A DNA stretch of 27,344 nucleotides from Deltaproteobacteria bacterium (GTDB taxonomy: Bacteria > Myxococcota_A > Polyangia > Polyangiales > Houyiibacteriaceae): positions 1-27,344 of the forward strand of contig JAXMNT010000074.1 of NCBI GenBank assembly GCA_034670305.1. Reading direction: 5' to 3'. Below are positions 1 through 27,344 of the stretch, piece by piece. The notes beneath the pieces were generated by a model. The model was not told the DNA's origin, searched no databases, and worked only from the letters and a program-made list of their open reading frames with translations. Position 1 is the first letter of the stretch. Each line of letters begins with the position of its first letter. Both the position numbers and the translations under genes were made by a program.

Positions 1-41
1 TCGCGATGCTCGTCGCGCTGATCAAGCGATCTGACCGCTGA
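1..41 (+). CDS. 3' end of a truncated CDS (..AMLVALIKRSDR*), possibly a four-helix-bundle protein
   Basis: Frame starting at position 3 is open to TGA at 39-41. AMLVALIKR resembles the C-terminal helix of the four-helix-bundle protein at 11595-11909 (CAMLYKLSR). Only 12 full sense codons are visible. Confidence 0.35.
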   Translation, partial: AMLVALIKRSDR

Positions 42-42
42 T

Positions 43-125
43 CCGCGGGCAAGGGCAAAGGCAAGGGCAGGGGCAAGGGGCAGGCTGCGAGAACGCCCTG
101 CGGGCGTTCTTCAGCAACCTGCTAG
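43..125 (-). repeat. Composite repeat element: CTAG + CAGG..CCTG hairpin + (TTGCCC)n
   Basis: The minus strand reads CTAGCAGGTTGC..AGAACGCCC-GCA-GGGCGTTCT..GCAGCCTG followed by about 6 degenerate TTGCCC units (GGGCAA on +, 47-83). The same layout occurs at 27204-27267. Confidence 0.7.
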
Positions 126-9208: not shown

Positions 9209-11413
9209 CTATGCGGGTTCGATGCGGACCACCGCGTTGTAGTCGGGGACGAGGCCGCCGGGGTCGTGGCGGCCGGTGGGGATGAGTACGTTGGCTTCGG
9301 GCCAGTGCATCTGCACAGAACCGGGCGTCACGCGCACGACGAACGCGCGGCCATGGAAAGAGCCGTGTTCGTTGTGCACGCGGATCGGGTCGTCGTGTTC
9401 GACGCCGAGTCGGCGGGCGTCGCGCGGGCTGATGAGGACGTGGTCGCGGGCGGCGCCGGTGAGCTGGTCGACCGCGGACTGAATCAAGCTGTTGAATTGT
9501 TTGCCGCGCCGGGTGGCGAGGTGGAGCAAACCGTCTTCGAGCCGGCGGTCGGGCGCGGGGACGAACTCGAACTGGCCTTTGCCGCTCGGCGTCCCGAACG
9601 TGCCCTCCGCGCACAGATGGCGGCCGCCCCACTGGAACTGATCGCCCTTCTTCTCGAGGCTGGCGATCTCTGCGTACGCGGGAAGCGTCGCGGCGATGTC
9701 TTGCCGAATGGCCGCGCTGTCTTCGTACGCGAGAAACTCGGTGGTCTCGGGACGGGCCGCGCGCACGACGTCGGTGACGATGCGCCACTCCTCCCGCGCT
9801 TCGCCGATCTCGTGGCCGGGCACATGCGGGCTGTAGATCACGCGGCGTTCGGTGGTGGTCTCGGTGAGGCCGCCGCGGTGTTCGTACCGGGTGCGGGCCG
9901 GAAGCAAGTACGCGACCTCGGCCGGCTCGACGAGCATGGAGGTGGTGAGGAAGAGATCCTGGTGGATGCGGAGCGGGATGGTGCCGAGCGCGGCTTCGAC
10001 CCGCGCGGGGTTCGGAAGCACGTCGAGGAACGCGCCGCCGATCGCATAGAGCACTTCGAGCTGTCCTTCGGACGCGGCTTCCATCATCGCGACGGTGTCC
10101 CAGCCGACGATCGCCGGCGGGCGGAAGCCCCACAGAGACTCGAGCTCGTCGGCGGATGCTTCGGTGATCGGCCGGCCCGGGAACGTGGTCGCGTAGGCGC
10201 CCATCTCCGCGCCGCCCTGCACGCCCGAGTGGCCGCGGATCGGCATCAGGCCGGTGCCGTTGCGGCCGACCCAGCCCTGCGAGAGCGCGAGCTGACAGAC
10301 CTGCGCGATGGTGTCGGTGCCGTGGCTGTGCTGGGTCAAGCCCATGCTCCACACGAAGATCCCGTTGCCCGCCGATTCGAGTTCGTCGGCGAGCGCGATC
10401 ACCTCGGCGCGTTCGCACCCGCTGCGCGCGATGAGCTCGTCGAGGTCTTCGAAGTCGAGCGCGCGTGCGTAGGCTGCGTAGCCTTCGGTGTGCGCGTCGA
10501 TGAAGTCGTGCTGGATGGCGCGACGACCGATGAGGATCTTCTGCACCGCTTGGGCGAGCGCCATGTCGCCGCCGGAGGCGACGTGCACGAAGCGGTCGGC
10601 GATCTCCGTGCCGAGCACCGCGCTGTCGGCGTTCGAGGGGATCCAGTACTTGCGCATGCCGGGCTCTTCGTAGGTGTTCACCACCACCACGCGGGCCCCG
10701 CGTTTCTTCGCTTCGTAGAGGTACTTGAGCGCGACCGGCTGGTCGTTCGCGGGGTTGCTGCCCCAGAACACGATGACGTCCGTCTCGTACCAGTCGATGT
10801 AGCTGCAGGTGCTCGCCGCGGCGCCGAGCACCTTCTTCATCGCGGCGGTGGATGGGCTGTGGCAAAGCCGCGCCGCGTTGTCGATGTGGGGGGAGCCGAG
10901 CGCGCGCCAGGCTTTCTGAGCGGCGAAGTAGATCTCGTTCGTGATGCCGCGCGAAGTCATGTAGCAGGCGCTCTTCATCGGATCGGCCGCGCCGAGCCGC
11001 GCACCGATGCCTTCGAGCGCTTCGTCCCAGGAGATGCGGGTGTAGCCGGCTTCGCCTTTGCGCCACCGCATCGGGTACGGGATGCGGCCGAGCTCGCGGA
11101 GCTCTTTCGGGGTCTTCGCCTTCAAGGACTCGACGTCTTCGAGCAGGCGCACGTTGAGCGCGCCCATCGTGTTCACCCGCAGCAGGTTGAGCCGCACCAG
11201 ACACAGGTGGGTGCCGTCGATGGTCCAGTCCTTCAGACCGCTCGTACCGAGCGCACATCCGTCGCAGACCCCGTCGTTGAGGATGCGCCAGGCGTAGTTC
11301 CACTTGCCGGCGTTGTCCCAGAGGATCTGCGCCATCTCGAGGTAGTGGTGGGGTTTGGTCGCTCCGATGCCAAAGGGCAGCTTGGAGTCGAGAACCGGCA
11401 GAGACTTCGTCAT
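9209..11413 (-). CDS. FdhF/YdeP-family molybdopterin oxidoreductase
   Basis: GVCDGCALG, ARLCHSPS, WSMGLTQH, PIRGHSGVQG, TETTTERR and a C-terminal TRRGKQFNS..WPEANVL..PDYNAVV molybdopterin-dinucleotide domain. ATG 11413 preferred (TG-G-CACCAT 7 nt upstream); 11422 is the alternative. Confidence 0.92.
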   Translation of the reverse strand: MTKSLPVLDSKLPFGIGATKPHHYLEMAQILWDNAGKWNYAWRILNDGVCDGCALGTSGLKDWTIDGTHLCLVRLNLLRVNTMGALNVRLLEDVESLKAKTPKELRELGRIPYPMRWRKGEAGYTRISWDEALEGIGARLGAADPMKSACYMTSRGITNEIYFAAQKAWRALGSPHIDNAARLCHSPSTAAMKKVLGAAASTCSYIDWYETDVIVFWGSNPANDQPVALKYLYEAKKRGARVVVVNTYEEPGMRKYWIPSNADSAVLGTEIADRFVHVASGGDMALAQAVQKILIGRRAIQHDFIDAHTEGYAAYARALDFEDLDELIARSGCERAEVIALADELESAGNGIFVWSMGLTQHSHGTDTIAQVCQLALSQGWVGRNGTGLMPIRGHSGVQGGAEMGAYATTFPGRPITEASADELESLWGFRPPAIVGWDTVAMMEAASEGQLEVLYAIGGAFLDVLPNPARVEAALGTIPLRIHQDLFLTTSMLVEPAEVAYLLPARTRYEHRGGLTETTTERRVIYSPHVPGHEIGEAREEWRIVTDVVRAARPETTEFLAYEDSAAIRQDIAATLPAYAEIASLEKKGDQFQWGGRHLCAEGTFGTPSGKGQFEFVPAPDRRLEDGLLHLATRRGKQFNSLIQSAVDQLTGAARDHVLISPRDARRLGVEHDDPIRVHNEHGSFHGRAFVVRVTPGSVQMHWPEANVLIPTGRHDPGGLVPDYNAVVRIEPA

Positions 11414-11450
11414 CGCGCGCATGGTGCCACATGGGAACCCGACCGCGGAA

Positions 11451-11558
11451 AGCGCCAGCGGCAGCGGCAGCGGCAGCGGCAGCGGTAGCGGTAGCGGTAG
11501 CGGCAGCGGCAGCGGCAGCGGTAGCGGTAGCGGTAGCGGTAGCGGTAGCCGTAGCGGA
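11451..11558. repeat. Hexamer microsatellite (GCGGCA/GCGGTA)n
   Basis: Alternating blocks of AGCGGC and AGCGGT units. Confidence 0.95.
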
Positions 11559-11560
11559 GA

Positions 11561-11588
11561 AGGCCGGCGCCCAGTTGGACGCCGGCCT
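11561..11588 (-). terminator. Hairpin just after the four-helix-bundle stop codon
   Basis: AGGCCGGCG (11561-11569) and CGCCGGCCT (11580-11588) form a perfect 9-bp stem 6 nt beyond the stop. The U-tract is weak. Confidence 0.5.
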
Positions 11589-11594
11589 CACCCG

Positions 11595-11909
11595 TCAGCG
11601 GCTGAGCTTGTAGAGCATCGCGCAGACGTGGTCGCACCGGTCGAGCAGCCCCGCGTCGAGTTCCACGTACCCGAAGACCTCCGCGAGCTGCATCGCTGCC
11701 TTGAGCTCGCTGCACTCCCCATACGCAATCGAGAACTTGTCATGAGACCGCAGCCCCCGCGCTTGCCGAGCCTCCGCAATGTTCAAGACCACGCTCTGCG
11801 CCGCCCGCTGCATCTGGGAAGCGAGCGAAGCGTCGTACTTGCGCACGGCCGGCAGCACTTGAGCGCGCAGCAAACGCACGAGTTCGAAAGAAGTTTGTAG
11901 AACGATCAT
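11595..11909 (-). CDS. Four-helix-bundle protein (23S rRNA intervening-sequence protein / bAvd-like family)
   Basis: 104 aa with signature LASQMQRAAQSVVLNIAE..F.IAYGECSEL..AML. SD-like AGGGG about 7 nt upstream of the ATG. Confidence 0.9.
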   Translation of the reverse strand: MIVLQTSFELVRLLRAQVLPAVRKYDASLASQMQRAAQSVVLNIAEARQARGLRSHDKFSIAYGECSELKAAMQLAEVFGYVELDAGLLDRCDHVCAMLYKLSR

Positions 11910-11942
11910 CGGAGACCCCTGTGTGAAGACGACCGAGCGACA

Positions 11943-12072
11943 TGCCCGGCGGCCGCAGGCCGCCGTCGTCTGGCGGGTCAGGGGTCAAGGGCGAAGCGGC
12001 GCGCAGGCGCCGGGCCGCAGGCCCCCTTGAGGCCTGGCACGCCAGACGACACGCTTGATCACCCGCCGGGCA
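11943..12072 (+). promoter_or_regulatory. Branched hairpin, putative Frpo-like ssDNA promoter for the four-helix-bundle gene
   Basis: Long imperfect stem 11965-11991/12024-12050 capped by GCGAAGC, GGCGC-GCAG-GCGCC and GGGCC-GCA-GGCCC mini-hairpins. The 3' arm carries TTGAGG (12027-12032), 17 nt, then CACGCT (12050-12055). Confidence 0.65.
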
Positions 12073-12105
12073 CCCCACCCCTGCTTCGCACCCAACCCCG
12101 AGTCC

Positions 12106-12131
12106 GAAGAAGCGGAAGCGTCAGCGGAAGC
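12106..12131. repeat. Short degenerate GCGGAA hexamer run
   Basis: GAAGAAGCGGAAGCGTCAGCGGAAGC, in the same orientation as the array at 11451-11558. Confidence 0.55.
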
Positions 12132-12218
12132 AGGTGGCCTGGCCGGTTCGGGGAATCGCGGGGGTTGCTTGGGGGTTTGGTTGCTCCCATGCTCCGCGCG
12201 CCCATGATTCGCCCCTCC

Positions 12219-12626
12219 ATGCGCTGTCTTGCGCTCCTCATTCCCGTGCTCGTCGCGTGTGCCCCGGAGATCGGGGACGGCTGCGAGACGTCGGTGGACT
12301 GCTCGGTCAACGGCGAGCGCATCTGCGACCGCACCCAGCCCGGCGGCTACTGCACCATCCAGGGGTGCGAACCCGACACCTGCCCCGACGGAGCCTCCTG
12401 CGTGGAGTTTCGCGGCATGCCAGACCGCACCTCGGTGACGTTCTGCATGGACGGCTGCGGGAACGACGGCGATTGCCGAACCGACTACGTCTGCGTCAAC
12501 GACATGGACGCGCGCCTGCTCGAAGGTTACCCGGACGATCTCGACTCCATGTCACTCGCACGGGTGATCGATCTGAACGAGGGCCGCGCCGACGACTCGT
12601 TCTGCGTCACCGACCCCGACATGTAG
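12219..12626 (+). CDS. Small Cys-rich lipoprotein (myxobacterial type)
   Basis: Lipobox IPVLVA-C; mature CAPEIGDGC..DC..RICD.TQPGGYCT..GC..CP pattern. The earlier in-frame starts (12027 etc.) run through the hairpin region and look non-coding. Confidence 0.8.
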   Translation: MRCLALLIPVLVACAPEIGDGCETSVDCSVNGERICDRTQPGGYCTIQGCEPDTCPDGASCVEFRGMPDRTSVTFCMDGCGNDGDCRTDYVCVNDMDARLLEGYPDDLDSMSLARVIDLNEGRADDSFCVTDPDM

Positions 12627-12655
12627 GTCGCCGGAAGCAGGGCATGTAGGTGGGC

Positions 12656-12816
12656 GCTCCTGCTTCCGCTTCCGCGTCCGCTTCCGCTCCCGCTTCCGCT
12701 TCCGCTTCCGCTTCCGCTTCCGCTTCCGCTTCCGCTTCCGCTTCCGCTTCCGCTTCCGCTTCCGCTTCCGCTTCCGCGTCCGCCAGCCGCAGCCGCTTCC
12801 GCGCTTCCGCTTCCGC
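12656..12816. repeat. Hexamer microsatellite (GCTTCC)n
   Basis: Long near-perfect tandem run between the lipoprotein and slt genes. Confidence 0.95.
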
Positions 12817-12880
12817 GACTGCCCTTTTCCGGCCGCTGGGAAATGAAGGCGGCCCCGCCAGACGTGGTAACAGCGTTCCC

Positions 12881-15040
12881 GTGGCGCTCCGTCTCCCCAG
12901 CCCTGCCGGCCACCCGGCCACCCTCGCTGTGCTGGCGGTGCTTGCGCTCGCCACGACCGCAGCCGCCCAGGAGCCGCCGGTCCCCGAAGCCGTCCGCCTC
13001 CACGTCGAACACGGGCAGTTCGCCGAAGCCCTCGAAGCCCTCGGAAGCGCCACCGCAGAAGAAACTCCGGCCCACCGCTACTTGAGAGGCCGGCTGCTCG
13101 AGTGGCTCGGTCGCGACGCCGAAGCCGCCGAGGCGCTCGACCTCACCGAGACCCTGCCCGCCAGCATCCTCGAAGACGCCGCGCTGCGCCGAGGCTCGCT
13201 TCTGACCCGCCTCGGCCGCTGTGAGCCGGCGCGCCCGGCACTGCTTCGCGTCCGCCGCACCCGAGACGCACAGGTCGCGCGCGCGCTTATGGCGCAGTGC
13301 CTTCTCCGAGACGCGACCGACACCGAGTCCCGCGCCGCCGCCATCACCGCCTTGCGCGCCGTCGCCGCCGAAGCCGGCCGGGACGTCGACACCTTCGCGG
13401 TGCAGGCGCTGCTCGCCGAGGCGCTCGATCTTCAAGGCGACGCACCCGCCGCCACCACCATCCGCCGCCGCCTCTACATCGAACGGCCGGAGCACCCGGA
13501 CGCGGCGCTGCTCCCGGTGCCCACCGATCTCTCCATCGACGAGACGCTGCGTCGCGCGGACGAGCTGGCCGATGCGCTCCGACACGCGGACGCGGTCGCG
13601 CTCCTCGACGGCGGTCCACCGTCCGGCGCCTCGCGCTCCCAGCAGGCCACCTGGCTGCACCAGCTCGGCATGGCGCTGTACAAGACCCGCCACCACTACG
13701 ACCGGGCCGCGGAGATCTTGCGCCGCGCGAGCCGGCTCGGTGGCAGCGACGCCCTCGAGGACGAGTTCCACGCCGCCCGCGCGCTCTCCCGCGCCGATCA
13801 AGACGCCGACGCCATCCGCGCGTACCGCCGCTTCGCCCGCACCCACCGCCGCCACCGGCGCGCGGCCGAAGCCGAGTACCTCGCGGCCTGGCTGGAGCTG
13901 CGCACCCGCCCCGCCGCGGGCCGTCGCGCCTTCGAACGTTACCTCCGCGGCGCCGGCCGCACCGACGGCCGCCGACGGTCCAACGCGGAGTGGCACCTCG
14001 GCATGGGCGCGTTCGATGCCGGCAACCACACCGAAGCCGCCCGGCGCTTCACCGACTACGCCGGCAACAGCCGCGACCCGATGCGGGGCGGTCGAGGTCT
14101 GTACTGGGCCGGGCGTGCGCACCACCTCGCCGGACGCACGACCCGCGCCGCCGCGCTCTACCGGCAGGTCCGCGCGATGGACCCGCTGCACTGGTACGGG
14201 CTGCACGCGGAGAAGCGACTTGCGGAGCTCGGCATCACCGAAGACATCCCGCTCCGCGCCGCTGGCGAAGCGACCCCGCTCCCGACGCCGCCCCTGCCCG
14301 CCGACGTCGAGTTGCTGCTCGGTCTTGGCCTCGCCTCCGACGCCCGCGAACGCCTCGCTCGACTGGAGTCCTCCCTGCGCGAGGCTGCACCGCGCGGCCG
14401 ACGCGCGGAGTACATCGTCGCGGCCTACCAGCGCGTTGGCGATGCCTACCGGGGTTTCCGGCGCGCGGTCGCGGCCCGTTCCCAGCTCAACACCGCTCCG
14501 TCGGGTTCGGCCGAATGGGCGTGGCGTGGCGCCTACCCGCGTCCCCACGAGGCGGTGGTCCGGCGCGAAGCCGCGCGGCACGGCATCCCGTTCGAACACG
14601 TGTACGCAACGATGCGCCAGGAGAGTCAGTACGAACCGCAGGTCGTCAGCCGCGCCGATGCGATCGGTCTGTTGCAACTGATCCCGGCGTCCGCACAGAG
14701 CGCGGCGCGACGGCTCGGCGTGCCCTACGCGCGCGACCGGCTCTTCGACCCCGAGTACAACATCCAGCTCGGCGTCGGTGAGATGGTCGGCCTGTGGCGA
14801 CGCTTCGACGGCGCGATCCCGCTGGTGATCGCGGCCTACAACGCGGGCGCGGCGCGGGTCACCCGCTGGATCCGCGAACTCGGTCCCGCCGAGCTCGATC
14901 TCTTCGTCGAACGCATCCCCTTCGACGAGACCCGCAACTACGTCCGGCGCGTCACCTCCCACTTCGCACGCTACCGCTACATGGAAGACCCCACCGGCCG
15001 ACCTCCGCTGCCCGCACGCGTCCCCGTCTCCGAGGACTGA
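12881..15040 (+). CDS. slt: Soluble lytic murein transglycosylase (Slt-like, TPR + SLT domain)
   Basis: Signal peptide, TPR-like helices, and SLT motifs MRQES, AIGLLQL, AAYNAG, ETRNYV. GTG 12881 chosen because TG-G-TAACAG lies 7 nt upstream; the ORF-track start at 12650 reads through the microsatellite. Confidence 0.88.
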   Translation: MALRLPSPAGHPATLAVLAVLALATTAAAQEPPVPEAVRLHVEHGQFAEALEALGSATAEETPAHRYLRGRLLEWLGRDAEAAEALDLTETLPASILEDAALRRGSLLTRLGRCEPARPALLRVRRTRDAQVARALMAQCLLRDATDTESRAAAITALRAVAAEAGRDVDTFAVQALLAEALDLQGDAPAATTIRRRLYIERPEHPDAALLPVPTDLSIDETLRRADELADALRHADAVALLDGGPPSGASRSQQATWLHQLGMALYKTRHHYDRAAEILRRASRLGGSDALEDEFHAARALSRADQDADAIRAYRRFARTHRRHRRAAEAEYLAAWLELRTRPAAGRRAFERYLRGAGRTDGRRRSNAEWHLGMGAFDAGNHTEAARRFTDYAGNSRDPMRGGRGLYWAGRAHHLAGRTTRAAALYRQVRAMDPLHWYGLHAEKRLAELGITEDIPLRAAGEATPLPTPPLPADVELLLGLGLASDARERLARLESSLREAAPRGRRAEYIVAAYQRVGDAYRGFRRAVAARSQLNTAPSGSAEWAWRGAYPRPHEAVVRREAARHGIPFEHVYATMRQESQYEPQVVSRADAIGLLQLIPASAQSAARRLGVPYARDRLFDPEYNIQLGVGEMVGLWRRFDGAIPLVIAAYNAGAARVTRWIRELGPAELDLFVERIPFDETRNYVRRVTSHFARYRYMEDPTGRPPLPARVPVSED

Positions 15041-22530: not shown

Positions 22531-23777
22531 GCCGTCGCGTGGGTTGGTTCGCGGCGTGGGTGGCGGTGTGGTGGGTGGTGTGCGCACCGCATGCGGTTGC
22601 GCAGCAAGCGGGAGCGGAAGCGGACGCGGACGCGGGAGCGGGAGCGGATGCGGACGCGGGAGCGGACGCGGAAGCGGAAGCGGACGCGGATACGGACGCG
22701 GAAGCGGAAGCGGAAGCCGATGCCGACTCCGATGCCGAAGCCGATGCCGAGGCCGAGGCCGATGCCGATGCCGAGGCCGATGCCGATGCCGACGCCGATG
22801 CCGATGCCGAGGCCGATGCCGATGCCGACTCCGAAGCCGATGCCGATGCCGATGCCGATGCCGATGCCGATGCCGATGCCGATGCCGAGACCGAAGCCGA
22901 CTCGGTTTCAGAAGCAGGGGCAAGGGCAGGGGCAAGGGCAGGGGCAAGGGGCGGTGGCGATGTTGCGGATCCGGAGACCGTGTCCAACCGTCGGGCACGT
23001 CGGCGGGCGGCGCAGCGGGATTGGAGCTGGGCGGATGGGCCCGAGCGCGGCTTCTTTGCGGCGACGATCGACCTCGGGTTTCTCTACATCCGTCCCCGGC
23101 TCAGCGCGGGATGGGGACTGCCGCACACGCGGTGGATCGGGTTCGACGCCAACCCGATCGTGGCACCGAGCGCGGCCGGGTTCTACGCGGGGGCGCGCAT
23201 CGCCCATCCGATCGTGAACCTGCGCGCGGGCGCGCGCTATGGCGTCGCCTACAACCGCAGCTACTTCGACCCGATCCCGAACGACCAGAGCTTCACCACC
23301 CGCGAGTGGGCGCGACGCGACGACACCACCGCGAGCTACCTCTCGCTCGAGACCGAGCTCACCCTGAACATTCCCGCGGGCCCCGGTCGCATCCTCTCGG
23401 AGACCTCGCTGACCTACGTCAGCCGGGTCCCCGAAGACAAGTTCGTCCTCGAAGAGACCCTTCACATCATCGTCGATCCGCCCTGGGTGTGGCGGACCCG
23501 CTTCGGCTACGAAGCCCGCTTCGCCGACGGCGACGTGCGCATCGCGGCGGTGGGCGAGTTCCTCCACGTGCCCAAGCGCGACATGCTCGTCTTCCGCGCC
23601 GGCCTGCTCATCCGCCTCAACGTCACCGCCCAGCTGCAACTGCGCGCCAGCTACGTGGCGCCGATCGAACGGCGCGACCGCCTCGGCTTTCGCGGCGGAG
23701 ACTTCGGCCTCATCGGCCTTCGCTACCGATGGGCCACCGGCGCCAACCCACCGAGCGCCGAAGCGCAGGGCCGGTAA
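22527..23777 (+). CDS. Exported protein with an acidic (Ala-Asp/Glu)n linker and a probable outer-membrane beta-barrel domain
   Basis: ATGA coupling and a signal peptide, then about 115 low-complexity residues, then alternating beta-strand patterns ending IGLRYRWATG. Confidence 0.7.
   Translation: MSRRVGWFAAWVAVWWVVCAPHAVAQQAGAEADADAGAGADADAGADAEAEADADTDAEAEAEADADSDAEADAEAEADADAEADADADADADAEADADADSEADADADADADADADADAETEADSVSEAGARAGARAGARGGGDVADPETVSNRRARRRAAQRDWSWADGPERGFFAATIDLGFLYIRPRLSAGWGLPHTRWIGFDANPIVAPSAAGFYAGARIAHPIVNLRAGARYGVAYNRSYFDPIPNDQSFTTREWARRDDTTASYLSLETELTLNIPAGPGRILSETSLTYVSRVPEDKFVLEETLHIIVDPPWVWRTRFGYEARFADGDVRIAAVGEFLHVPKRDMLVFRAGLLIRLNVTAQLQLRASYVAPIERRDRLGFRGGDFGLIGLRYRWATGANPPSAEAQGR
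22608..22952. repeat. In-frame hexamer array (GCGGAN, GCCGAN, then GGGCAA/GGGCAG)
   Basis: Tandem hexamers inside the CDS 22527-23777. Confidence 0.9.
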
Positions 23778-24070
23778 GCCGAGCCGAAGCCGAAGCCAAA
23801 GCCGAAGCCAAAGCCGAACCAGAAGCCGAACCAGAAGCCGACGCCGACGCAGAAGCAGAAGCAGAAGCAGAAGCAGAAGCAGAAGCCGACGCAGAACCCG
23901 AACCCGAAGCCGACCCGGGAGCGGCCACGGAAAGCGGACGCGGAAGCGGAAGCGGAAGCGGTAGCGGACTCGGAAGCGGACTCGGAAGCGGAATCGGGAG
24001 CGGAAGCGGAAGCGGTAGCGGAAGCGGTAGCGGAAGCGGACTCGGAACCGGAAGCGGAGGCGGAAGCGGC
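23778..24070. repeat. Compound hexamer microsatellite (GCCGAA, GCAGAA, GCGGAA/GCGGTA)
   Basis: Begins immediately after the TAA at 23777. Confidence 0.93.
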
Positions 24071-25259: not shown

Positions 25260-25264
25260 GCCCC

Positions 25265-25434
25265 GTTTCCGCTTCCGCGACCGCGACCGCTTCCGCTTCC
25301 GCTTCCGCGACCGCTTCCGCTTCCGCTTCCGCGACCGCTTCCGCTTCCGCTTCCGCTTCCGCTTCCGCTTCCGCTTCCGCTTCCGCTGCCGCGACCGCTT
25401 CCGGTTCCGCTTCCGCTTCCGCGACCGCTTCCGC
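25265..25434. repeat. Hexamer microsatellite (GCTTCC/GCGACC)n between convergent genes
   Basis: Fills nearly the whole gap between the patatin and serC stop codons. Confidence 0.95.
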
Positions 25435-26526
25435 TCAGCCGTTCTTGGCGGCGAAGTCCTTCATGAACGCGGTGAGGGTCTGGATGTTCTCCGGGTCCAT
25501 CGCGTTGTACATCGAGATGCGGATGCCGCCGACCGAGCGGTGGCCCTTCATGTTCACGAGGCCGTTCTTCTTGCCCTCGTCGAGGAACGCCTTCTCGAGT
25601 TCCGGCGTCGGCAGGTTGAACACGACGTTCATCACCGAGCGCGAAGCCTTCTCGATCGGGCAGCGGAAGAACTCCGCGTTGCCGTCGATCGTGCCGTAGA
25701 GCATCTCCGCCTTCGCGCGGTTGCGCTTCTCCATCGCGGCCGCGCCGCCCTGGGCCTTCACCCACGCGAGCACCTTGCCGACCGCGTAGATCGCGAACAC
25801 CGGCGGCGTGTTGTGCGTGGAGCCCTTGGACGCGATGAAGTCGTACCGAAGCATCTCCGGAAGCTCTTGGTTGCCCTTCGCCATCAACGACTTCTCGATG
25901 ATCGCGAGCGTCACACCGGCCGGCCCGAGGTTCTTCTGCGCGCCGGCGTAGATGAGCGAGAACTTCGACACATCGACCGGACGCCAGAGCATGTCGCTCG
26001 ACATGTCGGCGACGAGCGGCGCTGCGGTTCCGGAAGACAGCACCTCGGGGAACGAGTGGTACTGCACGCCCGCGATGGTCGCGTTGCTGGTCAGGTGCAC
26101 GTACTTGGCGTCCGCGCTCAGATCGAGCTTCTGCGGCGCGCGCACGTACCGCTCGCCTTCCTTGCCCGTCGCCGCGTAGCGGGGTTTGCCGTAGAAGCCC
26201 GCCGCCACCTGCGCCTTCTTCGACCAAGAGCCGGTGTCGACGTAGTCGGCCACGCCGCCGCCGAGGAAGTTCATCGGCACCATCGCGAACTGGCCGCTCG
26301 CCCCGCCCTGGAGCCAGAGGACCTCGTGGGTGTCCGGCACCGCGAACAACTCGCGCACGAGCGCGGTCGCGGTCTCGTGGACCTCGGTGTACTCGGCGCC
26401 GCGGTGGCTGTGCTCGAGCAAGGACATGCCGGAGCCCTTGAAGTCCATCATCTCGTCGCGAATCTCTTCGAGAACGGAGACAGGAAGGGTGGCGGGACCG
26501 GCGCTGAAGTTGATGACTCGACTCAT
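25435..26526 (-). CDS. serC: Phosphoserine aminotransferase
   Basis: NFSAGPA, SHRG, LQGGASGQF, DTGSWS, DMSSD, YAGAQKNLGPAG (PLP lysine), NTPP, RS.MNV.F, KGHRSVGGIR.S.YNA. Confidence 0.97.
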   Translation of the reverse strand: MSRVINFSAGPATLPVSVLEEIRDEMMDFKGSGMSLLEHSHRGAEYTEVHETATALVRELFAVPDTHEVLWLQGGASGQFAMVPMNFLGGGVADYVDTGSWSKKAQVAAGFYGKPRYAATGKEGERYVRAPQKLDLSADAKYVHLTSNATIAGVQYHSFPEVLSSGTAAPLVADMSSDMLWRPVDVSKFSLIYAGAQKNLGPAGVTLAIIEKSLMAKGNQELPEMLRYDFIASKGSTHNTPPVFAIYAVGKVLAWVKAQGGAAAMEKRNRAKAEMLYGTIDGNAEFFRCPIEKASRSVMNVVFNLPTPELEKAFLDEGKKNGLVNMKGHRSVGGIRISMYNAMDPENIQTLTAFMKDFAAKNG

Positions 26527-26685: not shown

Positions 26686-27207
26686 ATGACGGAGGACTCC
26701 GACGGGACCTATCCCCTGGACGCGATCGACACCCAGCTGCTCAACGAGCTGCAGCAGGACGCCAAGCTCTCGCTCAAGCGCATCGGTGAGAAGGTCGGTT
26801 TGAGCGCGCCCGCCGTCATGGAGCGCGTCCGCAAGATGGAACAGGCCGGCGTCATCCTCGGCTACCACGCCCAGATCGACGCGCGCCGCGTCGGCGTCGA
26901 CATCGCCGCCTTCATCGGCGTCGGCATCGGCGACCCCGGCCGGGTCAAAGACTTCGAAGCCTGGGCCGACGAAGTCGCCCCCATTCTCGAGTGCCACCAC
27001 GTCACCGGCGGCTACACGCTCCTGCTGAAGGTGAAGGTCCGCAACACCCGCGGCCTCGAACAGCTCATCAGTCTGATCCGCAGCCTCGACGGCGTCAGCC
27101 ACACCGAGACGATGATCGTCCTGAGTACCCACGCCGAACGCATCCCGGTCCGACTCGCGGTCCCGGCCGCCGAAGAACCAAAGAAAAAGAAGCGCCCCCG
27201 CTCCTAG
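26686..27207 (+). CDS. Lrp/AsnC family transcriptional regulator
   Basis: LDAID..LL..LQ.DA..S...IG..VGLS..AV.ERVRKME..GVI.GY HTH, plus the ECHHVTG RAM domain. TG-C-TAAGAC lies 7 nt upstream of the ATG. Confidence 0.95.
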   Translation: MTEDSDGTYPLDAIDTQLLNELQQDAKLSLKRIGEKVGLSAPAVMERVRKMEQAGVILGYHAQIDARRVGVDIAAFIGVGIGDPGRVKDFEAWADEVAPILECHHVTGGYTLLLKVKVRNTRGLEQLISLIRSLDGVSHTETMIVLSTHAERIPVRLAVPAAEEPKKKKRPRS

Positions 27208-27267
27208 CAGGTCGCTCAAAAGCGACCTGCTCCCTTGCCGTTGCCCTTGCCCGTGCCCTTGCCCGCG
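27204..27267 (+). repeat. Composite repeat element: CTAG + hairpin + (TTGCCC)n
   Basis: CTAG (containing the Lrp stop), then a perfect 11-bp stem AGCAGGTCGCT-CAAA-AGCGACCTGCT, then about 5 degenerate TTGCCC units and GCG. Confidence 0.7.
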
Positions 27268-27344
27268 TCGTGGACGCCGTGTGTTTCGCGACGGCGAGGC
27301 CGCGAATCGGAGCCCGATGCCCAGCGGACGAAGCCGCCGGGCAT

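Follow-up and report, generated by a model that had tools for sequence, protein, structure and literature searches.

What is the unit of about 680 bp that lies at positions 11451-12131 of contig C74, between an fdhF-like gene and a gene for a lipoprotein-like protein? The window under study is this contig in its full length of 27,344 bp, which belongs to the genome of a deltaproteobacterium of the Polyangiales (assembly GCA_034670305.1, here G000; 7.93 Mb in 105 contigs, 68% G+C). The unit carries a small gene for a four-helix-bundle (4HB) protein with a structured leader upstream, a hairpin downstream and hexamer arrays at its edges, and a first-pass annotation of the sequence had proposed that it is a minimal mobile cassette without a transposase. 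Tandem Repeats Finder (TRF), open reading frame (ORF) prediction, profile searches and folding returned all of the named features where that annotation had placed them. As to what the unit is, our best explanation, held with middling confidence, is that it represents one copy of an old, selectively maintained, non-autonomous cassette of a DNA family termed A, which spread as a unit in the past. The architecture of the cassette and its conservation are solid; its mobility and its function we infer. Within the window the cassette has the following parts, where upstream and downstream refer to the orientation of the gene:

11451-11558, no strand assigned: downstream (3') hexamer array (TRF 11457-11557: period 6, 16.8 copies, 94% matches, score 146)
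11560-11589, minus strand: G+C-rich hairpin with a 13-bp stem and a 4-nt loop, 5 nt past the stop codon, forming the 3' edge of the conserved cassette
11595-11909, minus strand: gene for a 104-aa 4HB protein, PF05635 23S_rRNA_IVP / TIGR02436 (from profile matches, AlphaFold2 and Foldseek)
11910-12080, minus strand: conserved structured leader of ~170 nt (from conservation and covariation)
12097-12114, minus strand: degenerate small hairpin module, CCGCTTCTTCGGACTCGG in gene orientation (from the alignment of eight family A copies)
12106-12131, no strand assigned: remnant of an upstream (5') array of the (CCGCTT) type (TRF 12109-12131: 3.8 copies, 76% matches, score 32)

The genome contains 48 loci that match PF05635, 39 of them above the cut-off. 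On the DNA level, 45 of the 48 fall into four families, with nine copies in family A, 14 in B, 13 in C and nine in T, while three join none. The window copy is a member of family A, as seven other loci match the window unit over 547-669 bp at 84-90% DNA identity, the non-coding parts included. When the eight full family A copies are aligned, they are homologous from about 170 nt upstream of the ATG up to a point immediately behind the hairpin; beyond these limits there are only arrays or unrelated DNA. Families B and C have the same layout as family A, and the leader is homologous across all three. The order of the parts is array, one or two small hairpin modules, leader, Shine-Dalgarno-like run and ATG, an ORF of 103-104 aa, hairpin and, often, a second array. 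Altogether 36 copies of the A, B and C cassettes are located at unrelated intergenic sites of the genome. The idea of a discrete, repeated cassette was thus borne out by the bounded homology of the eight full family A copies at unrelated loci. When the window unit was compared with the genome by blastn, paralogous cassettes and arrays were the only matches, with no search aimed at a template/variable repeat pair. Blastn also detected 13 solo-leader relics, and 12 of these lie within 100 bp of an array.

Arrays of this kind are abundant in the genome: the 1583 period-6 rows reported by TRF merged into 1438 arrays, which cover 151 kb (1.9% of the genome). At least 60 bp is reached by 721 arrays, of which 469 lie wholly outside predicted ORFs, and AAGCCG-type units dominate the array load. 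The association between arrays and cassettes was judged against 4820 ORFs from a crude ORF caller (77% coding, longest-start rule), so that the null frequencies are approximate. An array of at least 60 bp was present within 400 bp upstream of 28 of the 36 A/B/C cassettes, as compared to 287 of 4616 other ORFs (Fisher p ~1e-26). The corresponding numbers were 17/36 versus 437/4616 within 100 bp downstream (Fisher p 7e-9), and 11/36 versus 39/4616 for arrays on both sides (Fisher p 3e-14). The distance between start codon and array was mostly 225-300 bp, and each family had its own unit. Among cassettes with an array within 450 bp upstream, the unit was CCGCTT/ACCGCT in five of seven family A copies, AGCGGC in six of 12 family B copies and AAGCCG/ATGCCG in all 11 family C copies, the latter with a constant strand. 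Downstream, family B had CGGCTT in nine of the ten cassettes with an array within 120 bp, and a CCGCTN-type unit, as in the window, was present in three of the five family A copies that have a downstream array. Binomial tests against the genome-wide shares of these units gave p values of 8e-7 to 6e-6 for the three upstream units and of 4e-5 for the downstream unit of family B. In families A and C, one unit in one orientation often stands on both sides of the cassette, whereas in family B the units differ between the two sides. Since the distance, the unit and the strand are specific to each cassette family, the array must be inherited together with the cassette, and it represents a part of the cassette's end rather than a chance neighbour. 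A mere coincidence of arrays and cassettes in an array-rich genome could appeal to the sheer number of TRF rows and to the 6-9% of predicted ORFs that adjoin an array. This idea deserves practically no credence, being already refuted by the Fisher statistics upstream and on both sides, by the fixed distance, unit and strand, and by the recurrence of the same architecture with other units in other genera.

In the window itself, the cassette had been described as bounded by two arrays. Both are of the GCGGNA type on the plus strand and, hence, co-oriented. The left one, which separates the cassette hairpin from the start codon of the fdhF-like gene and has the sequence (AGCGGT/AGCGGC)n on the plus strand, equivalent to (CCGCTA/CCGCTG)n in gene orientation, is indeed strong, but the right one has decayed to a remnant of 3.8 copies. 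At the site of this remnant, the other seven full family A copies have a much longer array, with the gene-nearest units spanning 85-285 bp. Array length varies widely between copies and reaches 360 bp. In keeping with the further expectation that paralogues would carry flanking arrays and the hairpin, array position, unit and strand were tied to the cassette.

The same architecture was encountered outside this genome. The relatives used for comparison belong to genera other than that of G000, and the number of PF05635 matches per genome ranged from 0 to 45 among 41 genomes. In the complete 9.1-Mb genome G012, all 22 4HB genes in 19 fetched loci had a period-6 array 210-351 bp upstream, and a twentieth locus gave no tblastn match. 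Two cassette types were found in G012, each with its own units, which are GCCGAA/GCCGAT, as in family C of G000, for the one type and TCAGTC for the other. In nine further relatives (G013, G002, G008, G036, G033, G004, G007, G011 and G015), 19 of 20 loci had arrays of 6-7-nt or compound units beside the gene, the exception being a locus of G004. An array on at least one side was also present at all seven loci from named metagenome-assembled genomes (MAGs; Myxococcota/Myxococcales and one 'Bdellovibrionales'). For the nine relatives and the MAG loci, the array calls are our own reading of the table of these loci. At least ten further Myxococcota genomes, all from other genera, thus have the cassette architecture. 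Array units differ by lineage among the relatives, and arrays of the cassette-linked units also occur away from cassettes in G002 and G012. The (GCGGAA)4 pattern was counted 861 times in G000 and at most 15 times in each of 40 relatives, which shows that the array units are lineage-specific.

As a separate observation, the cassettes of G012, G013 and G002 often form convergent pairs of two 4HB types, in which array-leader-gene faces gene-leader-array with 60-100 bp between the stop codons.

The leader has a fold that is shared by families A, B and C. It consists of a long outer stem, a 3' hairpin and an inner stem, TCAAGGG/CCCTTGA, with two or three hairpins inside. In the window leader, the outer stem GTCGTCTGGCG / CGCCAGACGAC encloses the inner stem, which itself holds two hairpins; the hairpin GGCGGCC..GGCCGCC comes next, and a GGGG Shine-Dalgarno-like run is located 8-11 nt before the ATG. 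The fold of positions 11910-12080 has a predicted energy of -102.9 kcal/mol with a z-score of only -2.3, and seven of 200 shuffled sequences folded equally well. We consider the structure real because of its conservation and covariation, and not because of its folding energy. The mean p-distance in the leader was 0.089 as compared to 0.286 at third codon positions, and compensatory changes were detected at 7, 3 and 6 pairs in families A, B and C, respectively. In some copies, whole leader hairpins have been swapped. Homology between the leaders of G012 and G000 is visible by alignment, and the inner stem appears in these two genomes as TCAAGGG/CCCTTGA, TCAAGGA/TCCTTGA, TAAAGGCC/GGCCTTGA, TAAAGGGC/GCCCTTGA and TAAACCCC/GGGGTTGA. 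Four of its eight pairs changed on both sides between G000 and G012; the covariation amounted to 0.333 versus 0.122 in shuffled alignments, none of 500 of which scored as high, in a control that ignores relatedness.

The upstream region had been described as a single-stranded DNA (ssDNA) promoter. No sigma-70-like pair of hexamers was found on either strand of the linear sequence between 11300 and 12300, and the sequence TTGAC, which is invariant in the leader, lies inside a stem and has no conserved -10 partner hexamer. Stems predicted on both strands contained 1078 Watson-Crick cells, one G-U and 13 A-C, and the union of leader stems contained 70 G-U versus 60 A-C, with the sense and antisense strands folding about equally well. 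These counts are not decisive as they pick no strand, and the leader is compatible with a role as RNA or as single-stranded DNA. The promoter assignment therefore found no backing. A comparison of 11300-12300 with Rfam returned nothing near a gathering score and no rRNA match. As an aside, two family B copies (C28:6530-6820 and C68:35759-36028) have an extra insert of ~64 bp with its own hairpins inside the leader, which looks like another small repeat.

At the other end of the gene, the hairpin at 11560-11589 had been called terminator-like. A 61-nt stretch containing it folds at -44.2 kcal/mol with a z-score of -6.5, and none of 200 shuffled sequences reached this value. The hairpin is kept in all eight aligned family A copies, where substitutions preserve the stem. 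A strong G+C-rich hairpin is thus certain, but it is not followed by a T-run and a scan for consensus terminators returned zero sites, which means that it lacks the hairpin-plus-U-run make-up of an intrinsic terminator. It may nevertheless act as a terminator without U-run in this high-G+C host.

The 104-aa protein is a member of PF05635/TIGR02436, as judged by both profile and fold. It matched PF05635 with 54.2 bits (E 2e-14; cut-off 33.8) and TIGR02436 with 56 bits (E 3.9e-15; cut-off 24). AlphaFold2 predicted four helices, formed by residues 2-25, 27-49, 53-78 and 86-103, with a mean confidence (pLDDT) of 94.6. The best structural matches in Foldseek, with template modelling (TM) scores of 0.83-0.88, were the stand-alone proteins XCC0516 (2GSC, TM 0.83-0.85) and BT_0352 (2RLD, TM up to 0.88), and a profile search of PDB sequences with hmmsearch returned 2GSC only (E 3.5e-9). 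PF05635 is a large family with two solved structures, and it includes Avd, a protein of diversity-generating retroelements (DGRs). To our knowledge, stand-alone members have no known function. This holds for 2GSC and 2RLD, each of which was deposited with five chains, A-E, the one hint that the cassette protein may be a homopentamer, and nothing in the searchable literature ties these two proteins to microsatellites. Avd (PDB 4DWL, 8UB7) shares the four-helix-bundle fold with the cassette protein; yet, with a TM score of 0.66-0.71 and 8-11% identity it is a more distant match in Foldseek than 2GSC and 2RLD.

The first-pass annotation had linked the gene to DGRs via Avd. PF05635 is the commonest family next to DGR reverse transcriptases (RTs) (PMC10053308). 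While Avd adjoins such an RT, the cassette gene has no RT beside it, and among the 15 window ORFs scanned none matched an RT, transposase or integrase family. The genome has three RVT_1 genes, located on the other contigs C23, C10 and C67, and the PADLOC model that fits them best is the retron RT of type XIII. The DGR link was accordingly dropped, and the absence of a transposase from the unit was confirmed. PADLOC matched no defence family to the three 4HB proteins that were tried. A HEPN-like Rx4H motif was considered and rejected, since only family A has it (RGLRSH), without conservation in families B and C. One of the RVT_1 genes (C67:18832-19467) is located ~5 kb from a family C cassette (C67:13340-13591).

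How old are the copies, and do they still move? The ratio of non-synonymous to synonymous substitutions (dN/dS) was 0.093, 0.134 and 0.061 in families A, B and C, respectively, and the ORF is intact in 33 of 35 copies. The synonymous divergence dS ranged from 0.30 to 0.75 within family A and went down to 0.08 in family B. Together with the low p-distance of the leader, these data showed that both the protein and the leader are under purifying selection and that the copies diverged long ago. Past dispersal to unrelated sites is clear, and there is no sign of recent movement. The proposed current mobility thus found no support, the highest identity between any two A/B/C copies being 94.5%.

The annotation had further predicted that the gene would not be syntenically fixed. 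Nine loci of FdhF orthologues in other genera (65-77% identity) were inspected over up to 1.5 kb upstream, and none had the lipoprotein gene, a 4HB gene or a long array there; for one of the nine, the upstream sequence was only ~160 bp long. Since the whole FdhF neighbourhood differs in these relatives, this result indicates that the cassette is not fixed at this site and does not document an insertion event.

Public sequencing reads were also inspected. Four runs of one study contain the stretch, and three marine runs contain a relative that is ~94% identical, with short Logan contigs that break at arrays. In runs X5 and X6, the matching to this marine relative ends at window position 11425, 3 nt upstream of the fdhF-like start, and at 12631, 5 nt past the lipoprotein stop. 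The intergenic content between the two genes may differ in the marine relative, whose contigs are short. A metagenome scan with the FdhF N-terminus found no relative.

A different picture was obtained for family T. The T element has a size of ~612 bp, for instance at G000:C14:16223-16834, and is bracketed by inverted (CCCTTG)5.5 and (GGGCAA)5.5 arrays and by hairpin-bearing ends of the form TAGCAGG...CCTGCTAG; with the arrays included, the sequence of its ends is TAGCAGGTCGCTGAAAAGCGACCTGCT(CCCTTG)n ... (GGGCAA)n..CAGCAGCCTGCTAG. A total of 253 loci were detected by blastn, including 34 complete internal copies of 182-670 bp whose arms are 96-100% alike, and the longest copies contain a 4HB gene. 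As many as 154 of the 210 contig ends stop in a T element. This includes both ends of the window (1-124 and 27206-27344), which are arms of the element that the first-pass annotation had overlooked and where positions 1-42 encode the last codons of a PF05635 gene. On its other strand, the left arm carries a C-terminal fragment of a DDE_Tnp_1 transposase; no intact DDE_Tnp_1 gene was found in the assembly. The arms have no homologues in 40 relatives, whereas the 4HB part of the element does. Family T looks like a miniature element derived from an insertion sequence (IS) that took along a 4HB cassette, and it has the marks of a miniature inverted-repeat transposable element (MITE). It has the look of recent mobility in this genome, and the A/B/C cassettes are unlike it: the inverted ends, target duplication and near-identical copies that mark an IS-derived MITE were not found in families A, B and C. 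The T element was also considered as a parent of the A/B/C cassettes, and this was rejected because the arms lack homologues in relatives and do not resemble the leaders of the A/B/C cassettes.

Another link to transposition was noticed at the array edge, where the A and B cassettes begin with GTAGCCTCTCCTTCGGA. In A/B copies other than that of the window, the small hairpin module reads GTAGCCTCTCCTTCGGAGTCGG at this edge. The sequence GTAGCCTCT(T)CCTTCGGA forms a GTAG-tagged palindrome; in 15 rows it adjoins both an array and a 4HB gene, and these rows belong to 13 A/B cassettes. Of the 60 occurrences of the motif TCCTTCGGANTYGG in the genome, 58 are no more than 100 bp away from an array. 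The genome also has 11 paralogous Y1_Tnp genes for proteins of 230-237 aa, with conserved flanks (e.g. G000:C38:23463-24161). Inverted GTAGCCAATAGGG ends, also given as GGTGTAGCCAATAGGG, were found at five of these 11 genes, namely at both ends of two and at one end of three. This is reminiscent of repetitive extragenic palindromic (REP) sequences, their hairpin-forming doublets (REPINs) and the REP-associated tyrosine transposases (RAYTs). In PMC3733652, a GTAG or CGTC tag is ascribed to most REPs, and mobilisation of GTAG REPs by RAYTs is put forward as a hypothesis. The likeness consists in the GTAG-tagged small palindrome at one edge of the A/B cassettes, in the presence of RAYT-like Y1 genes in the genome and in the old, persistent and non-autonomous character of both. 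On the other hand, the cassette is ~600 bp long and protein-coding, and the Y1 genes are multi-copy, with inverted ends of their own that differ from the repeat of the cassette.

How could such a cassette have spread? Our best explanation is that it did so in the past as a unit, as is assumed for the 23S rRNA intervening-sequence (IVS) elements, which carry a protein of this family, with the function needed for movement supplied in trans. The route that we think most likely would be recombination or gene conversion between arrays of the same unit and orientation, whose 60-360 bp would serve as portable homology. Alternatively, RAYT-like Y1 transposases could cleave a single strand at the GTAG-tagged hairpin. 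By analogy with its pentameric relatives and with Avd of DGRs, the protein may bind the repeated or folded nucleic acid of its own cassette, either for autoregulation or for maintenance of the element. At present the cassette would be quiescent, or it would move too rarely to leave near-identical copies. A bolder version seems quite improbable to us. It would have the cassette as a protein-coding, non-autonomous mobile element of an undescribed kind, in which a pentameric 4HB protein binds its own microsatellite or leader as a single strand, with copying at arrays, or creation of arrays, by way of HUH transposases or array recombination. If this were true, the microsatellite load of these Myxococcota genomes (151 kb in the present one) would largely be its footprint, and the PF05635 proteins, including those of the IVS elements and Avd, would share a role as chaperones of structured single strands in selfish elements.

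Several observations weigh against past spread as a mobile unit, and they need to be set beside the alternatives. Active elements usually leave near-identical copies, and here the best DNA identity between two A/B/C copies was 94.5% and dS did not fall below 0.30 in family A or 0.08 in family B, which means that there is no recent copy. No terminal inverted repeats were present in the alignments of the A/B/C cassettes, and a target duplication is unreadable next to arrays. The different units on the two sides of family B cassettes are at odds with simple recombination; composite arrays of the family B type, as would be left at empty sites, numbered four versus seven in a wrong-order control and were thus not enriched. 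Only ~50 of the 721 long arrays adjoin a cassette or a relic. With respect to the Y1 transposases, the GTAGCC tag is missing from the window copy and was not observed in family C. The ends of the Y1 elements and the cassette motif share only the hexamer GTAGCC, which was noticed after the fact, and the best NCBIfam model for the Y1 protein, REP-associated tyrosine transposase, gave 39 bits, which is below the cut-off of 80. Lastly, a gene family that benefits the host would explain the purifying selection on every copy equally well. This leads to a rather unlikely but serious alternative, namely a fixed, host-beneficial multigene family of ancient, non-mobile dispersal, in which the 4HB genes would be normal chromosomal paralogues with a promoter region, leader and terminator for each and the upstream microsatellite acts as a cis-regulatory contingency element that tunes or switches expression. 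Such a family would account for the age of the copies (dS 0.3-0.75, none near-identical), for dN/dS values of 0.06-0.13 with 33 of 35 ORFs intact, and for a leader that is more conserved than third codon positions. It would also account for a distance between array and gene that is constant within and between genera, and the widely differing array lengths are expected of contingency loci. As at such loci, a short-period array of variable length stands at a fixed upstream place. Phase-variable loci typically use units of 1-8 nt inside promoters or ORFs. The cassette arrays, in contrast, have units of 6-7 nt, extend up to 360 bp and lie 210-350 bp before the ATG; they are often accompanied by a second array past the gene, in a layout that is repeated 36 times per genome. 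In G000 the distance of 225-300 bp from the ATG places the array outside the conserved leader, and no promoter hexamers were found for it to space; about half of the cassettes also have an array past the hairpin, which a promoter switch leaves unexplained. The sharply bounded homology with unrelated flanks, the copy number of 0-45 among relatives, the lack of a cassette at all nine orthologous fdhF loci and the existence of solo-leader relics likewise speak against a fixed family.

The model of the first-pass annotation differs from past spread by array recombination in that the element would pass through an ssDNA stage without a transposase, have a hairpin ssDNA promoter and land in hexamer arrays, with gene-less arrays as empty sites or scars. 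Its leader stems are almost purely Watson-Crick, which fits palindromes at the DNA level, and families A and C often have the same unit and orientation on both sides, as would result from the splitting of one array. Moreover, arrays of the same units are plentiful elsewhere, and the genome contains GTAG-tagged hairpins as well as genes for Y1 (HUH) transposases, enzymes that work on single strands. We nevertheless regard this model as improbable. Besides the missing -35/-10 pair on both strands, the invariant TTGAC without a conserved partner hexamer and the absence of recent copies, only 13 relics stand against 721 long arrays. Together with the composite arrays of the family B type, this number gave no support to the reading of gene-less arrays as empty sites or scars. 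Furthermore, the units are family-specific and conserved across genera, which fits co-inheritance better than landing in any available array.

Among the closest known systems, next to Avd of DGRs, the REP/RAYT systems and simple-sequence contingency loci, is the 23S rRNA IVS with an S23p/IVP ORF in Leptospira and Coxiella. Both share the protein family PF05635, and both are short (0.4-0.7 kb), with a single small ORF amid strong secondary structure. IVS elements are regarded as selfish, and that of Coxiella is described as a selfish genetic element of 428 nt with an S23p ORF (PMC4990558). The cassette differs in its location between protein-coding genes rather than inside an rRNA gene, in being flanked by direct arrays rather than enclosed in one long complementary stem, and in its 36-48 copies per genome with ORFs under purifying selection. 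It is family T that brackets its ORF with inverted arrays, which could pair like the IVS stem. We conclude that the cassette carries a PF05635-family gene and is neither an rRNA IVS, nor a part of a DGR, nor a classical MITE.

No description of array-flanked 4HB cassettes was found in the searchable literature, which leaves subscription journals outside its coverage. What emerges is an unusual, conserved genomic syntax for stand-alone PF05635 genes across several genera of Myxococcota. The array, with its family-specific unit at a fixed distance, and the covarying leader are concrete candidate ligands of the protein, as DNA or as RNA. Microsatellites are rare in prokaryotes but account for 1.9% of this genome, and the present association links their origin in bacteria with the PF05635 family. 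Should the cassettes be mobile, they would form a class of small protein-coding elements relying on repeat recombination or on HUH enzymes that act in trans. Otherwise, they would be a striking example of how microsatellites can be retained next to a gene during long periods of evolution.

The genes that flank the cassette in the window are outside the conserved unit:

9209-11422, minus strand: FdhF/YdeP-family molybdopterin oxidoreductase (TIGR01701, E 1.2e-182, 609 bits versus a cut-off of 582)
12189-12626, plus strand: Cys-rich lipoprotein-like ORF with a signal peptide ending in LVAC (read from the sequence)

The lipoprotein-like ORF matched no Pfam or NCBIfam family. Further hexamer arrays of the window are located at 919-1005, 12662-12816, 22606-22900, 23782-24069 and 25263-25435. 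The second of these, with a length of 155 bp, falls into the gene for an SLT/TPR lytic transglycosylase (12650-15040), the longest ORF of which reads it as (Ala-Ser)n; the true start of this gene is probably downstream of the array.

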